Positions 9,001 to 51,200 of a stretch of DNA of 64,000 nucleotides are shown piece by piece. The stretch spans positions 3,224,001 through 3,288,000 of the forward strand of contig OZ336876.1 in NCBI GenBank assembly GCA_965287045.1, in the 5' to 3' direction. Made by a program: the position numbers. How positions within the stretch are numbered: position 1 is the stretch's first letter; each line of letters begins with the position of its first letter. Origin of the DNA: Carcharhinus amblyrhynchos (lineage: Eukaryota).

Positions 9001-11667
9001 CCACACTCCAAATATGTACAAATTAGATGCATTCGCCATGCTAAGTTGCCATTATGTATAGCTTAGATGGATTAGTCATGCTAAATATAAGAGGTTACGG
9101 GATAGGATGAGAAAGTCAGAGAATCGGTGCAGACACGATGGGTCAAAGGGCTTCTTTCTGCACCGGATGGATTTCATATCCCTGTAGGATACCTACAGTG
9201 TTGATTTGTGTGTTTAACATAAGCTTCGTTTCTGTTTAATCTTCACATACACTTTTTTTATCTCGATGTTTTTTTTTTTCACACGTTTAAGATTGACCAT
9301 GGGAAATTTAGCTTCTGGAAGATCATCAGATGAAAAGACCGACACCACACGCATTCGGTTGTATAGCGCTGGGATGCTGAACTTTGCAGTCAAACGTAGA
9401 AAATGTGTCTTTTAGTATAAAGGCCAGTTGTACCATACGTTCCCAAGAGGTTAGGATCACAAAAAAAAAGATTGAACGGACTTCATTCTGGCAATGTTTT
9501 GATTGTGTGTCGGCAAATCGGTGATAGTACTGTATTTGCATTCATATCATGATGAATTAGTACATGCAATCGGTGTTGCTGATGTGGCACCTATATAGTC
9601 AGCACAACGGATTACTGAGGGTATTAAGGCTCATTTGGGATAGAGTGTGCCCTGTTTGAATGCACTTCTCCACTGGCGGCGGACAGAAATGTCGGCTTTT
9701 TAAAGAACCCGCCGAACCTGAAGTTTTCCTGAATTCGAAATCCTGACGGAAAACTTGATATGCCGGATCCTAACTGCATATATTTACATTGATATAATTT
9801 TCGAAAAGAGATGAAGACCAATGATGACGCTTCCAGTGTTGTAAATATTCAAGAAAATAGATTACGATTAAACATAGTAAAATAGAGATGAGAACAAGCA
9901 ATAATAATTCTACAGATTGAAATTTAGTTAGCACAGTTTGCAAATGTCTCTATTTTTATGAACACTGAGCTAAACATTCAGAAAGAGAATCTGACTGGGT
10001 TTCAACGGTATGAGCACATTGCAATAATAAATTGACTCCACACTTGACTTTAATATCTCCATTGAAGAGTCCATCAGCCTCCTTAACCTACTATTTTTTC
10101 GTAACTCCCTTAATTTTCATTTCACCGCAACTTATTGACAGATGAAGTATCGCAAATGGTTTGTTCGTTACATGTTGAAGTTCAGAAATATTCTGCAATG
10201 CGTTAAGCATTTGCTGGTAAGCAAACAAAAGGAACTTTAACGTCATATGATAACAAGTGAAGTTAAAAGGATGTTTCTTTAATTTTGCATTTTTTTAATC
10301 CTCGTTGTAATGACACTTTGTTTATAACTTTTCATTCCAGATCGTCCACTAAAACCCCATCTCTCTCTAGAAAGAAACCCTGGTATTTTCATGGCGGGAG
10401 ATACAATAAAAATGACTTGCACAGCTTTGAGCTTTTATGCAGGGAGTAAGTTTTACCTGAAGAAAGTTGGTGAAGCGAATCCTTTTGCATTTGGAACGAC
10501 TCCAGATGGAGTTCAAAGTATTACCTTTTCAGTCCAGGACGCAGATTTTAACAACAGTGGAAACTACTCGTGCATCTATGAAACGGAAAAATTTGGAAGT
10601 GCCGTGAACTCAAGCTATAGTGACCCTGTGCAAGTAAATGTAACAGGTGAGCAAAAACGAAACTGCAGCCCCATTGGTTCGAGGAGAACGAAAACAAAAC
10701 ATTGTTCGATAAATATTTCCTTGCTCACTTGATTCAAGTGAGTTAGTTAGAATCTTGGCCAGTTGGCCAGTGTATGGTGCCAGAAATAATTCACAATCGG
10801 TGATGCCCTCTGTCAGATAAAGGTTAGTGGCATATATTCACCAGAAACAAAAAAGATAGAAGATTCTGACACACGCACGTACGTTTGTTTTAGATAAGCG
10901 TCCTCCTTCTGCATGCATATTGACCTTATACTCATTCAAGTTCAAAAGCATCGACTCAGTACTAAGACTAATTTATACCTCAACATGTTAGACATTTAAT
11001 TCGATCTGGATAAACGGCATACCCCGAATTCCCAAGAGATTAAATATGCTGCTAAGGGCAGTTCAGATTTATGTGTGGATTGACCATACCTAATTACATT
11101 TGAGAACAGGTAACGAGAGGCCCACAGTGTTGTTGGAAGTGTTATTGCACGTAAGATTATGCATGTTTTATTGTTTATTCATGATTGGTAGAAGTTTGAT
11201 CCAGTTGAGTGGCTGGTTAGGCTATTTCCGAGGGCAGTAATAAGTGCACCTCATCGTTCTGATTCTGGAGTCACATACCGGCAGTACCTGGCAGTGATGG
11301 TCTTAATCACTGCCTAAAGGGAGAGCTTAAAATGGAGAAAGCACGTTAAAAAAAATAACTAGGTGTGCCTAATTCCCCATAGCAAACATTGAAATTATTA
11401 TTCGCTGCAGTATTTTCAATGAAAAGTGGAAAGAAAAACTGGAATGTGTTCCCCAGCTTAAAAAGTCAATGTAAAAAAGGAAAACAGTTTTCAACACACA
11501 CTATGAAGCAGAGGTCACTGTCCCTGTGTGTTTTTTTAAGTGTGTGTGTGTCTGTGTGTGCGGGTATGGCTGTGTGTGTATGTTTGCGTGTGTGTGATGG
11601 CCACGATGCTTGAGCATCAATATTTTTCGGGACATCCGGGTGTGAGTGGTTTCACAGAATCTGCTTG

Positions 11668-11747
<80 letters not shown>

Positions 11748-48200: not shown

Positions 48201-51200
48201 TTGAAAAAGCTGTCAGTCTGTTTCAGATATTACTAACAGCCAAATCCATTATCTGAATCTATGGCCTCATAAGTTAAATTATTTGTTGATCACTATTAAT
48301 TAATTGCATGTGCCGATAGGGACTGTTGGTGGAATACGAGTTAATAATAAAATAAAGTCCATCGCAGAAAGTTACACAATGGGGAACAGATTGACTGGAG
48401 ATTGGGACCTGTGCTTCTCAATTCCTGATTGAAATACAGCTCTATCTTCCGAAAACTTGTCTTCATTCTATTGGTTTTGATTGTATTTATAGATCAACCG
48501 CTTCAGCTCATTTTGTCTTTGGAAAGGATATCTGGTATCTTCATTGCAAGAGAAATAATAAGAATGACCTGCAGAGCATTGAACATTTACGCAGGAAGTA
48601 GCTTTCTTCTGATGAAAGCCGGTGAAGTTCATCCAATTGCTACACAATATGCTCCAAATGGAACAGCGAGCGTTACTTTCACTCTCCTGGATGTGGATGC
48701 CAGGGAAGATGGCGATTACACGTGTCGCTACCAAACACGCAAATCAGGGCATATTTCCAATCCAACAAGCAGCAACTCCGTGCATGTATACGTAACAGGT
48801 AGGTGAAAACGCAGACCATACTTTACTCCCTGATTTGTTGCCAACCCCATAACTGCACTTAATTTACTTACTTTTTTGTTGCTGCACCATTAAAATTGTG
48901 ACCATGAAATTACATGAAGGCCCACCAAGCGAGACGTCAACAATTAACCGTTTAATTTTGATGATTACTTTTACAGGCAATCGGTATTAGATTCATGGCC
49001 ATCCTTACTGCCGCTGGCTTTCAATCCCTAATTGATTTATATCCTACCATCAATGTTGCTGTTTTCGAATCAATGCCGTAGAATTTAGCAATCTGTTGAA
49101 ATCAGTGCCATCCCACCGAGTCCTAACACTGGAATATAAAAGTAACTAGAGGAGTTACATCCTCAAATTTACTTTTCTGTATCTCTAACGCAGGAACTCG
49201 CACCGTTTACAACAAAATAGTAGCCCAGAATACCCAACAAATCAACTCTTTTATGTAGAACACTTCGCTGAACATTTTGAGTTGCATCTCATTCACTGCA
49301 GCGTGGTTTCTCCAAATGTCTGTTTCTTCTCAGATGGACTCAATAACACATTATGACAGAAATGGACAGACTCCATCCTGACTCAATAAAACGGTTTCTC
49401 CACAAAGCCCATTGCAGTCGTCAGAAATGCGTGGCTCTAAATCTATAGTCCTTGTGTTACAGAGTTTCTAAACAATCCAAAATGAATCGAATTGCAAGAA
49501 TCATTTTGGGGTTGGGGTTGTGGTTGGGGTTGGGGGGAGGGGGTCATTAGACGGAGCACAGCTCATTTGCAGATGGAAATGTACCCCAATATTGGAGCTT
49601 TGTTCAATGTTGTTGAAGCCATACTTAAAGAAAGCACATTGTCTAATGAGGAAACTAAATCATCAGAATCAGGAAATTAAATTTATCCTGTTCATTCCTT
49701 GCAAAAAACGTGACATCAGAGAGATATAGCACTCCATTAAGACATCAGCTCATGTCTGTCACTCAACCATATCTTATGTTATATATCTGAAAAGTTATAA
49801 AACTCACTGATCCATAAAATATTAACAGCATTAAATATCTGTCATTTTCCATGTATTTTCTGACGCCATACCAGTAAAGAAAAAACAATTCTCAATTCAC
49901 GTTTTAAGTTGATGACCTTTCAGCTGAACACCACATGCCATGCGATTCTTCCTTTATTAAACCCTGGGTTGATTTTGTGTTAGGAATTCAGCCCTTCAAT
50001 GCATGATGGTCAATAATTTACCTTGTCCGTTGTCATGTCTTTTAGATGAGCTTCCAATACGGTTGACAAATGGCACACATTTTTGTTCCGGAAGAGTGGA
50101 AACTTATTATAACAATTCCTGGAGAGCAGTCTGCGATGATCATTGGGATGTGCTTGATGCAACTGTTGTATGTAGGCAATTAGCATGTGGAACGGCTCGA
50201 TCAGCTCCTGGCGGTAATCACTTCGGAACAGCGCCAGGTCCTTTCTTGTTTGATGACGTTCAATGCAATGGGACAGAATCTACTCTTTTGGAGTGTGAAA
50301 TGAGCCCCTTGGAACAAAACAACTGCAGATCTGGCCAGACTGCATCTGTTATTTGCGCAGGTAAAGTTGGGGATTTGATTGACGATGTAATACTTATATC
50401 ATAACGTATCAGAAGTATCAAGTGCAAATGATCCTACTGATGGAGACGCCATTGTGACACTGAGTTTCCCCTTACAGTAAAAAAAAGTGTTGAATGTCAA
50501 ATGGAACAATATAGCCTTTCAAAACATCTGCCATTTCGCCACAAATTGATTAGATAGAACATGTGGTTCTACGCATCATTTTATGGATATCCCTTTGCTT
50601 TTCCAATACCTCCTTAAAACGTTAACGTTCATGTTCTAAGGAGAAAGAGACAATTCCTATTTAAAAAAATGCTTCATCATCTGCAAGTATTCTGTTTACC
50701 TTCTTCTTCTGCGTGTAATGGCATTTGTTGCATCAATCACAAGTAAACGTGTATTATTTGCTAGAGGTCTCTAGAATTGCTGACATATACTCATGTGGCT
50801 TTTCACAATTTGTTCAGCAAAGCACAACAAATTCGTGTCGAACGTATTGTACAGTCCCTGTAACTTTATATAAGAGCTCGCAAATGGGAAAAAGGGGATC
50901 TGGAAGCATGGATTATTTTATTTTTTGTGTGGAAATTTCGTCAGGAAAGAGGTAATATTATGATCGGGACCGGATTTGGAAGACCAAACTGCTGAGGCGA
51001 ATATAATAATCCGCATTTTGTCTAACGGGTTTTCTTTTTTTTTACAACAGAACTTCGCTAGCAAGCTAATAATTCAGGAGATTTCAGCCGATTTATTGAC
51101 GCATATCCGGTAACCTGAACGGATGCAACTGAAATGAGTTTACATTTAATATTGCTGATGCTCGCGTCCTTTGAGATCCACTGAGATATTGCAAATATCC

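Follow-up and report, generated by a model that had tools for sequence, protein, structure and literature searches.

A 64,000-nt stretch of the genome of the shark Carcharhinus amblyrhynchos (hereafter the window) carries immunoglobulin (Ig) exons set among SRCR exons, which raises the question of what kind of Ig domain this gene uses and how the two domain types came to be joined. At least 22 exons of one large gene lie on the + strand of the window. All 22 are phase 1-1, are flanked by AG and GT, end in G and have a length that is a multiple of 3. The array repeats a unit of three exons seven times: an Ig exon, then an a-type and finally a b-type group-B SRCR exon. The features are as follows:

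2238..2552, + strand: SRCR exon type a (group B, 8 Cys); AG/GT, 315 nt, phase 1-1; a-type clade 100/100
4450..4764, + strand: SRCR exon type b; splice borders, Cys count, b-type clade
10341..10646, + strand: Ig exon 1 (LRC-like, Trp-less); Pfam, profile, motif, splice borders; AlphaFold model, Foldseek
11847..12161, + strand: SRCR exon type a; Pfam SRCR E 1.2e-28; tree, splice borders
14098..14412, + strand: SRCR exon type b; Pfam SRCR E 9.3e-33; tree, splice borders
15663..15962, + strand: Ig exon 2 (2-residue deletion, one extra Cys); Pfam, profile, motif, splice borders
17293..17607, + strand: SRCR exon type a; tree, splice borders
18951..19265, + strand: SRCR exon type b; tree, splice borders
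20792..21097, + strand: Ig exon 3; Pfam, profile, motif, splice borders
22379..22693, + strand: SRCR exon type a; tree, splice borders
26273..26587, + strand: SRCR exon type b; tree, splice borders; colinearity with basking-shark protein P0001 begins here
27431..27736, + strand: Ig exon 4; Pfam, profile, motif; pairs with P0001 domain 1 (SH-aLRT 83)
29189..29503, + strand: SRCR exon type a; tree, splice borders
32330..32644, + strand: SRCR exon type b; tree, splice borders
34203..34508, + strand: Ig exon 5; Pfam, profile, motif; pairs with P0001 domain 2 (SH-aLRT 85)
36725..37039, + strand: SRCR exon type a; tree, splice borders
41722..42036, + strand: SRCR exon type b, ending 86 nt before gap 1; tree, splice borders, P0001 colinearity
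43354..43659, + strand: Ig exon 6; Pfam, profile, motif, model, Foldseek; pairs with P0001 domain 3 (SH-aLRT 90)
44273..44581, + strand: SRCR exon type a, 309 nt; tree, splice borders
47301..47615, + strand: SRCR exon type b, starting 659 nt after gap 2; tree, splice borders, P0001 colinearity
48493..48798, + strand: Ig exon 7; Pfam, profile, motif; pairs with P0001 domain 4 (SH-aLRT 94)
50046..50360, + strand: SRCR exon type a, last intact exon seen; tree, splice borders, P0001 colinearity
59855-60142 and 60660-60881: two decayed SRCR frames

The initial annotation had let the Ig array run from 10341 to 48798, and these ends are the first base of Ig exon 1 and the last base of Ig exon 7. The Ig reading frames on the + strand span 10340-10648, 15662-15964, 20791-21099, 27430-27738, 34202-34510, 43353-43661 and 48492-48800. 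The introns of the array hold transposon copies. No signal-peptide exon, transmembrane exon, first exon or last exon was found within the window, nor any flanking gene, the Ig-SRCR gene being the only one present there.

The seven domains are Trp-less, C2-like Ig domains. All seven have a Cys pair at positions 27 and 78, and this pair, the G-x-Y-x-C motif, and the eight predicted strands and pTM of 0.71-0.72 of the models of Ig1 and Ig6, place them among the C2-like members of the immunoglobulin superfamily. The motif first proposed for the domains, written as a regular expression, matches 7/7, and the proposed replacement of the C-strand Trp by F-x-L was likewise recovered: Trp occurs in 0/7 domains, and F-(Y/L)-L lies within the predicted C strand (residues 37-42), beginning 11 residues past the first Cys, or 9 in Ig2, which lacks two residues and has one Cys more than the others. 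The proposed V-T-G ending holds as a motif in 7/7 domains, but its final G is a read-through into the donor site (G followed by GT). The codon for the first D of the Ig domain is split, with its G ending the exon before and its AT opening the Ig exon, and the junctions in database shark proteins mostly read V.VT-D/G and CS-D/G/N-(R/Q/H)P. The domains are 49-59% identical to Ig1 and carry 1 to 4 N-x-S/T sites each. When a seven-domain profile was run against the six-frame translation of the whole window, exactly these seven frames were recovered (E 1e-50 to 1e-53), with no further Ig frame up to E = 10.

The assignment of the domains to the type found in the leukocyte receptor complex (LRC) was upheld by a PDB profile search, by Foldseek on two models and by the ESM Atlas, all of which place LRC-family domains nearest. 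PIR-B came first in the PDB profile search (E 2.3e-19), and LRC-type receptors (LILR, KIR, NKp46, Fc-alpha-RI, CHIR, OSCAR) make up 41 of the 60 PDB rows listed, a count that overstates the independence of the matches because KIR and LILR entries are numerous in PDB. The F-Y-L of the window Ig aligns with the Y-R-L of PIR-B and of LILRB1 D1, and the PIR-B alignments reach the domain end, including the S-D-P/S...V-T-G tail. The best single domain against LRC structures is a weak match, at 29.7 bits and an i-Evalue of 5e-6, and the unrelated CD276 scores alike, at 31.9 bits. AlphaFold models of Ig1 (pLDDT 79) and Ig6 (pLDDT 77) are of middling confidence, with the seven paralogues only as input alignment. 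For Ig1, the top 7/7 Foldseek matches are OSCAR, CHIR-AB1, LILRA5 or LILRB4; for Ig6, 5/5 matches at E<=1e-3 are OSCAR, CHIR-AB1 or LILRA5. The E-values of these LRC matches are only 1e-4 to 4e-3, with a TMq of 0.74 and an rmsd of 2.8 for CHIR-AB1. ESM Atlas neighbors with names belong to KIR3DX1-like, IGSF1-like, A1BG and LILRA6 clusters.

Several features are shared with LRC-family domains: a length of about 100 residues encoded in a single phase 1-1 exon, the absence of the C-strand Trp with aromatic-x-Leu in its place, a trait taken as defining for LRC-type Ig domains, G-x-Y-x-C-x-Y in strand F, and an S-D-x-V/L-x-V/L-x-V-T tail. The differences are that the window domains start with D-R-P-L-K-P, whereas LRC-family domains start with L-P-K-P; that V-T is followed here by Asp or Glu contributed by the exon downstream, and by Gly in the LRC family; that the window Ig domains alternate with SRCR domains, whereas LRC-family receptors have a pure Ig ectodomain; and that in the Foldseek alignments no more than 17-28% of residues are identical to those of solved LRC domains. 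These comparisons of sequences and models support PIR-B, LILR, KIR, NKp46, Fc-alpha-RI, CHIR-AB1, OSCAR and LAIR-1 as the nearest solved relatives, and not I-set, V-set, Fc-gamma/epsilon receptor or FcRL domains.

The domains could instead be generic C2/I-set-like modules that match LRC receptors through their short length, the loss of Trp and the common G-x-Y-x-C, a reading we consider unlikely. Pfam yields Ig_2, Ig_3 and ig only (best E-values 5e-5 to 2e-7, 7/7 domains), as generic modules would, but its I-set and V-set models reach just 13-15 bits, under their cut-offs. CD276, LRIG1, contactin-2, VEGFR1 and IgLON proteins do rank among the best 60 PDB rows and score similarly per domain; however, most of the non-LRC matches listed cover just a short stretch at G-x-Y-x-C (e.g., query positions 63-91 or 61-86), whereas PIR-B alignments extend to the domain end. 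Past the first few Foldseek matches, nanobodies and other Ig folds follow with E-values just tenfold worse, yet three methods put LRC members on top, and robust grouping with I-set or V-set domains was seen in neither the profile nor the fold searches.

An origin of the domains in the FcR/FcRL branch instead of the LRC branch, of the kind seen in mouse FCRLS, is in our estimation still less likely. FcR/FcRL domains generally keep the C-strand Trp, which the window Ig domains lack, and no Fc-gamma/epsilon receptor or FcRL, FcRL5 included, occurs in the 60 PDB rows listed for the window profile, with FcRL5 and Fc-epsilon-RI present in the library. Many related shark multi-Ig proteins are auto-named FcRL5, which is also the best whole-protein PDB match of P0070 (1.6e-26) and P0167 (3.6e-16); however, it is D4 of P0070 that fits the window profile best (63 bits vs 16-39 for D1-D3), and D4 aligns with LILRA2, CHIR-AB1 and NKp46, whereas FcRL5 aligns best with D2. 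FCRLS itself is soluble, and its FcRL-type Ig domains are joined to just one SRCR domain, at the C terminus. An FCRLS-like chimera was rejected as a description of the window gene: the Ig type is nearer LRC than FcRL, and the architecture is (Ig-SRCR-SRCR)n, in which LRC-like Ig domains and SRCR domains alternate at a ratio of one to two, seven times or more. What mammalian FCRLS shares with the window is the joining of Ig-like receptor domains to group-B SRCR; the available text of PMC7940838 and PMC4016189 describes it as a natural chimera of these two domain types, thought to have originated by recombination between neighboring genes, and it shows that an FcRL-SRCR chimera is possible (PMC7940838).

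Two runs of unread letters interrupt the LRC-like Ig-SRCR array. The run at 42123-42415 begins 86 nt past an SRCR exon end and ends 938 nt before the Ig6 exon, and the run at 46473-46641 is separated by 1891 nt from the SRCR exon before it and by 659 nt from the one that follows. Both are intronic because of these distances, and the continuity check set beforehand found the Ig-SRCRa-SRCRb order unbroken across them; since 22/22 exons are phase 1-1, the reading frame is independent of the unread letters. The basking-shark protein P0001 is colinear across both gaps without an extra domain, and a whole repeat unit may have collapsed inside a gap. That the array is a decaying pseudogene or a repeat assembly artifact and no working gene, as the two gaps, the decayed SRCR frames at 59855-60142 and 60660-60881, the first or last exon not found in the window and the transposon copies within introns might suggest, is highly improbable, with 22/22 exons open, splice sites intact, all Cys kept, a position-by-position match with the basking-shark protein, and copies that are 40-50% different at the protein level and therefore not collapsed or duplicated reads.

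Each of the 15 SRCR domains corresponds to one exon of 309-315 nt with 8 Cys, which places them in group B, and Pfam PF00530 gave E-values of 1e-28 and 9e-33 on the 2 of 15 scanned. The a and b types (8 vs 7 exons) separate in the tree at 100/100. A VE(V/I/L)x-xxxx-W stretch, which we take to resemble the bacteria-binding motif of DMBT1, is present in 11/15 exons. Long tandem arrays of 8-Cys SRCR domains, each encoded by one phase 1-1 exon, are shared with DMBT1, CD163/M130, SSC5D, WC1 and CD5L, and the shark relatives are named M130-like, DMBT1-like or SSC5D by the NCBI pipeline. DMBT1 carries SID, CUB and ZP modules, the ectodomain of CD163 consists of nine SRCR domains only, and, to our knowledge, CD163, WC1 and SSC5D have no Ig domains. 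Orthology with DMBT1 or CD163 was rejected, as neither CUB nor ZP is found among the precomputed Pfam domains of five shark relatives and Ig exons are interleaved throughout the part of the gene covered here; these proteins are namesakes by SRCR content only, not orthologs.

The best database matches of the window gene are shark proteins, with no sign of human sequence, and the database relatives are automatic predictions. This locus is not alone in having such a mosaic: the Ig-SRCR-SRCR design is also predicted in four other named shark species, and Ig and SRCR domains are interleaved in other ways in rays, many teleosts and caecilians. Over window positions 26272-50362, P0001 runs colinear with the gene at 54-73% identity. 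In a domain tree built by a quick method from fish, amphibian and reptile database proteins only, the window Ig domains group in a single clade (SH-aLRT 98) with 11 Ig domains from further shark Ig-SRCR-SRCR proteins, Ig4-7 pair with P0001 domains 1-4 (SH-aLRT 83, 85, 90 and 94), and many forks around the window clade are open among shark, teleost and caecilian domains.

Related Ig domains are also carried by shark multi-Ig receptors, auto-named LILRA6, KIR3DL1, OSCAR, IGSF1-like or FcRL5, which score up to 64 bits per domain against the window profile. Unlike the window mosaic, these receptors have a pure Ig ectodomain and a predicted transmembrane segment, and their domains form clades separate from that of the window in the domain tree. 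Four of them (P0070, P0167, P0158 and P0163) bear ITIM-like tail motifs (ITYAVL, LTYADL, TLYAEV). Like teleost LITRs, for which the available text of PMC4810170 reports the same dual likeness, the shark multi-Ig receptors resemble both FcR/FcRL and LRC receptors. The basking-shark mosaic genes and some multi-Ig genes are probably on one scaffold, as their contigs have the same length (5,388,364). The initial annotation had regarded the mosaic as a clue to where LRC-like domains arose, which the four other shark species and the multi-Ig receptors speak against: sharks have many such receptors built from related domains, so that the mosaic makes derived use of the domain and is not its origin.

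Taken together, we think it probable that the locus is a mosaic extracellular glycoprotein gene with LRC-like Ig domains that was formed by shuffling and tandem duplication and has a scavenger-type function. An Ig exon of the FcRL/LRC-like receptor superfamily would have joined SRCR exons by phase-1 exon shuffling, and tandem duplication of the whole Ig-a-b unit would have followed, earlier than the split between the basking shark and the window's species. The earlier suggestion that an Ig exon was shuffled into an SRCR array survives as regards shuffling, which is plausible because every exon is phase 1-1, but its direction could be either, the Ig exon entering the SRCR array or the reverse. 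The array is better explained by one insertion and duplication of the three-exon unit than by repeated shuffling.

More tentatively, and with more doubt than confidence on our part, Ig-SRCR mosaics of LRC/FcRL-superfamily domains could represent an old, undescribed innate receptor family from the common ancestor of cartilaginous and bony vertebrates. Sharks, rays, teleosts and caecilians would have kept it, whereas amniotes would have lost it or retained only FCRLS. If this were true, the mosaics and the ITIM-motif multi-Ig shark receptors would mean that the first jawed vertebrates possessed an LRC/FcRL superfamily that had already diversified. Such early diversity would contradict published statements, made in some reviews, that sharks, as cartilaginous fish, are without LRC-type domains or such genes.

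By analogy with DMBT1, CD163, WC1 and SSC5D, the protein is likely a multivalent pattern-recognition scavenger glycoprotein, which would be secreted or membrane-anchored. Its SRCR domains would bind microbial or altered-self ligands, and its glycosylated Ig domains would serve as spacers or as a second binding module. As every exon is phase 1-1, any exon subset can be spliced in frame, which would permit isoforms of differing length. A hydrophobic stretch resembling a membrane anchor, with a short tail behind it, closes the related shark proteins P0004, P0005 and P0020.

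The window gene lies in AT-rich sequence (GC 0.41, CpG o/e 0.66). On the plus strand, the stop-to-stop frames include seven Ig-like ones, each followed by two SRCR-like ones, with two extra SRCR frames upstream of this series and one downstream. All 22 exons are bordered by an AG acceptor and a GT donor, have a length that is a multiple of 3 and end in G, and thus all introns are phase 1; the junction codon, made of this G and two bases from the start of the following exon, encodes Asp or Glu. The borders 10341 and 48798 proposed in the initial annotation coincide exactly with the start of the first Ig exon and the end of the last. 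The Ig exons are arranged as follows.

Ig exons of the window gene
10341-10646, plus strand, Ig exon 1, AG/GT, phase 1-1
15663-15962, plus strand, Ig exon 2, AG/GT, phase 1-1
20792-21097, plus strand, Ig exon 3, AG/GT, phase 1-1
27431-27736, plus strand, Ig exon 4, AG/GT, phase 1-1
34203-34508, plus strand, Ig exon 5, AG/GT, phase 1-1
43354-43659, plus strand, Ig exon 6, AG/GT, phase 1-1
48493-48798, plus strand, Ig exon 7, AG/GT, phase 1-1

Two runs of N interrupt the window, and both are intronic. The run at 42123-42415 begins 86 nt past an SRCR exon and lies 938 nt ahead of Ig6, while the run at 46473-46641 is located 1891 nt past one SRCR exon and 659 nt ahead of the next. As every exon is phase 1-1, the gaps have no bearing on the reading frame. 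The order of the repeated unit, an Ig exon followed by SRCR exons of types a and b, continues over both. Over 26272-50362, the window matches the basking-shark Ig-SRCR-SRCR protein P0001 colinearly at 54-73% identity, and P0001 shows no extra domain at the gap sites. A whole repeat unit may nonetheless have collapsed within a gap. Reading the array as a pseudogene or an assembly artefact was considered and rejected. No first or last exon was found in the window: tblastn with the terminal parts of five shark proteins revealed no signal-peptide, transmembrane or tail exons; matches fell in the SRCR and Ig parts only, and the hydrophobic ends gave no convincing match.

The Trp-less motif initially ascribed to the Ig domains is matched by all seven, and Trp was found in none of them. 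The Cys pair occupies positions 27 and 78, F-(Y/L)-L starts 11 residues past the first Cys (9 in Ig2), identity to Ig1 is 49-59%, and each domain has 1-4 N-glycosylation sequons. When a profile of the seven domains was run against the six-frame translation of the window, it matched these seven frames only. The proposed V-T-G end holds as a motif, except that its last G arose from read-through into the donor site. Since the window gene was searched exon by exon or via single-exon alignments, the junction residues were taken from related database proteins, where they are mostly V.VT-D/G and CS-D/G/N-(R/Q/H)P.

To which kind of Ig domain these exons belong was assessed by several routes. Pfam returned the generic families Ig_2, Ig_3 and ig together with weak matches to the Ig domain of HIDE1 (C19orf38), and the I-set and V-set models scored far under their cut-offs. 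In a profile search of the PDB, PIR-B ranked first (E 2.3e-19), followed by LILRB1, LILRA6, LILRB3, Fc-alpha-RI, NKp46, KIR3DL1, KIR2DL, CHIR-AB1 and OSCAR; bit scores of single domains were about 30 or less. The best 60 rows comprised 41 from LRC families by manual count, KIR and LILR being over-represented in the PDB, and 19 others (VEGFR1/2, CD276, contactin-2, LRIG1, IgLONs, titin, DSCAM, otk and sodium-channel beta-4), which match mostly via short stretches round G-x-Y-x-C. No Fc-gamma/epsilon receptor or FcRL appeared among these 60 rows, with FcRL5 and Fc-epsilon-RI present in the library. In the alignments, F-Y-L stands opposite Y-R-L of PIR-B and LILRB1 D1, and the match extends to the V-T-G end.

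Predicted folds point the same way. For the AlphaFold model of Ig1 (pLDDT 79), the top seven Foldseek matches in the PDB were OSCAR (four rows), CHIR-AB1, LILRA5 and LILRB4, and for that of Ig6 (pLDDT 77) all five matches at E<=1e-3 were OSCAR (three rows), CHIR-AB1 and LILRA5; Foldseek E-values for the two models ran from 1e-4 to 4e-3. Ig6 superimposed on CHIR-AB1 with TMq 0.74 and rmsd 2.8; the next matches were nanobodies and other V domains at rmsd >4.5. The nearest named clusters in the ESM Atlas, a lead rather than a test, were KIR3DX1-like, IGSF1-like, A1BG and LILRA6. The PDB profile, Foldseek and the ESM Atlas agree on LRC-like kinship, each line being weak alone; the original assignment to the LRC type is supported, and no other label at hand describes the domain better than "LRC-like". 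The HIDE1 model (PF17737) matched six of the seven domains weakly (E 1.8e-5 to 0.05), two of them above the curated cut-off, and is also precomputed on most of the related shark, teleost and caecilian proteins; HIDE1 is possibly akin to this domain type.

The same Ig-SRCR-SRCR architecture is predicted in basking, epaulette, brown-banded bamboo and zebra shark proteins automatically named "M130-like" or "DMBT1-like", some of which close with a hydrophobic, membrane-anchor-like stretch and, after it, a short tail. An exhaustive profile search yielded 1295 proteins at E<=1e-3, and 117 of the 271 proteins gathered contain both this Ig type and SRCR. Among named proteins, such mosaics occur in sharks (Scyliorhinus, Chiloscyllium, Heterodontus, Cetorhinus, Carcharodon), rays (Pristis, Mobula, Hemitrygon), many teleosts (cyprinids including zebrafish and carp, characiforms, Micropterus, Oreochromis, Thunnus, Anguilla) and caecilians (Geotrypetes, Microcaecilia), most of the 152 proteins from the exhaustive search bearing no name or taxon. 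Stretches of Ig-SRCR-SRCR periodicity are also found in the cyprinid protein P0206 and the caecilian protein P0074, other mosaics interleave the domains differently (IIIS, SIIS, SSSI...), and further relatives are purely multi-Ig. The automatic names of the mosaics are inconsistent and misleading, and include M130-like, DMBT1-like, SSC5D, IGSF1-like, "flocculation protein FLO11-like" and [quoted passage not shown].

The pure multi-Ig shark proteins are automatically named LILRA6, KIR3DL1, OSCAR, LILRA3, IGSF1-like or FcRL5. Four of them (P0070, P0158, P0163, P0167) combine a predicted transmembrane segment with ITIM-like motifs in the tail, such as ITYAVL and TLYAEV in P0070 and LTYADL in P0167; their relative P0164 has a short tail without such motifs. 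Judged by sequence, cartilaginous fish seem to have a family of paired inhibitory and activating receptors here, although two papers state that such genes are missing from these fish. Against the PDB, these proteins are about equally similar to FcRL5 and to PIR-B/LILR, and PMC4810170 reports a similar double likeness for teleost LITRs. In P0070, the window profile fits the membrane-proximal D4 best (63 bits, compared with 16-39 for D1-D3); D4 aligns with LILRA2, CHIR-AB1 and NKp46, and FcRL5 aligns best with D2. The basking-shark mosaic genes P0001, P0002 and P0171 and multi-Ig genes P0153, P0156 and P0061 are each reported on a contig of 5,388,364 bases, which suggests that they form one cluster, equal contig size being no proof of identity.

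The SRCR exons of the window fall into an a-type clade (8 rows) and a b-type clade (7 rows), supported at 100/100, which argues that the three-exon unit was copied whole. Ig history was addressed with a quick-search tree of 87 domains and 103 columns, with SH-aLRT support only, built on the first five domains per protein of 22 hand-picked proteins out of the 271. There, the seven window domains and eleven from other shark Ig-SRCR-SRCR proteins form one clade (98), and Ig4-7 pair with basking-shark domains 1-4 (83, 85, 90, 94), so the duplications appear to predate the split of the two species. Domains of the shark multi-Ig proteins split into two clades, one distal (13 rows, 98) and one proximal (5 rows, 99), and the proximal one groups with mosaic domains of teleosts and caecilians at 89. 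The tree is compatible with more than one attachment point for the clade of the window domains, and both a single old origin of Ig-SRCR mosaics and repeated shuffling fit it.

According to a 2014 survey of Fc and LRC receptors, shark genomes hold no LRC-type/FcRL homologues, and these receptors arose with bony fish (PMC4016189). A paper on LRC evolution stresses exon shuffling inside the family and treats fish counterparts as an open question; by term search, sharks and SRCR each have 0 occurrences in it (PMC6557307). The window domains and related shark multi-Ig receptors suggest that cartilaginous fish already possessed a diversified LRC/FcRL-like domain type. FCRLS is presented as a unique Ig/SRCR-B chimera in PMC7940838, which mentions no fish; the 117 of 271 proteins combining Ig and SRCR, the named ones from sharks, rays, teleosts and caecilians, stand against this uniqueness. 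The literature searched, with most subscription journals and supplements outside it, contained no description of shark LRC-like receptors or of shark, fish or amphibian Ig-SRCR mosaics, and the mosaic family is apparently undescribed. The known kinds closest to the window gene are group-B SRCR arrays, LRC/FcRL-type Ig receptors and the FCRLS chimera. The initial annotation was right in its observation of LRC-type Ig exons within an SRCR array but gave this locus too much evolutionary weight, since mosaics are widespread and many other shark genes have related domains: rather than being the origin of this widespread, automatically annotated family, the locus is an ordinary member. Describing the family properly would put misleading annotation right and give comparative immunology a new group of receptors to test.

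All 15 SRCR exons are of group B, with 8 Cys, and 11 of them contain a VE(V/I/L)x-xxxx-W stretch, which we take to resemble the bacteria-binding peptide of DMBT1. By analogy with DMBT1, CD163, WC1 and SSC5D, the product is likely to be a scavenger glycoprotein with multivalent pattern recognition. Among the nearest folds of the Ig domains, OSCAR and LAIR-1 are collagen binders, and CHIR-AB1 and Fc-alpha-RI bind antibody Fc, as partly stated in PDB entry titles; the Ig domains might hence add a second binding function, which is purely speculative. The phase 1-1 design permits in-frame exon skipping.

Outside the exons, five long ORFs of the window have no Pfam match. The intron before Ig1 (4765-10340) is the longest of the array at 5576 nt, the others spanning 613-4682 nt, and its long ORFs, likewise unmatched in Pfam, are probably transposon remains. 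Long simple repeats of the (CA)n/(TG)n type, visible in translated frames as HTHTHT and CVCVCV runs, lie at 11540-11850 and 43700-44130 in the introns directly after Ig1 and Ig6. Downstream of 50360, the expected b-type SRCR and Ig exons are absent in the window; two decayed SRCR-like plus-strand frames lie about 9.5 kb past the last intact exon. The first (59855-60142) scores 21 bits, too low for the Pfam cut-off, and lacks several of the Cys. The second (60660-60881) scores 56 bits in shortened form, its continuation being in a different frame near 60911-60970. Both are possibly dead exons, either from this array or from an adjacent copy. An interspersed repeat is present in three copies, at 34515-35261 (plus), 37680-38390 (minus) and 23808-24307 (plus), whose long ORFs have no Pfam match. 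The third copy is 68% alike; the first begins 7 nt past the end of the Ig5 exon and forms with the second an inverted pair, 88% alike, flanking the SRCR exon at 36725-37039, an arrangement that, speculatively, could favour exon skipping or circular RNA.
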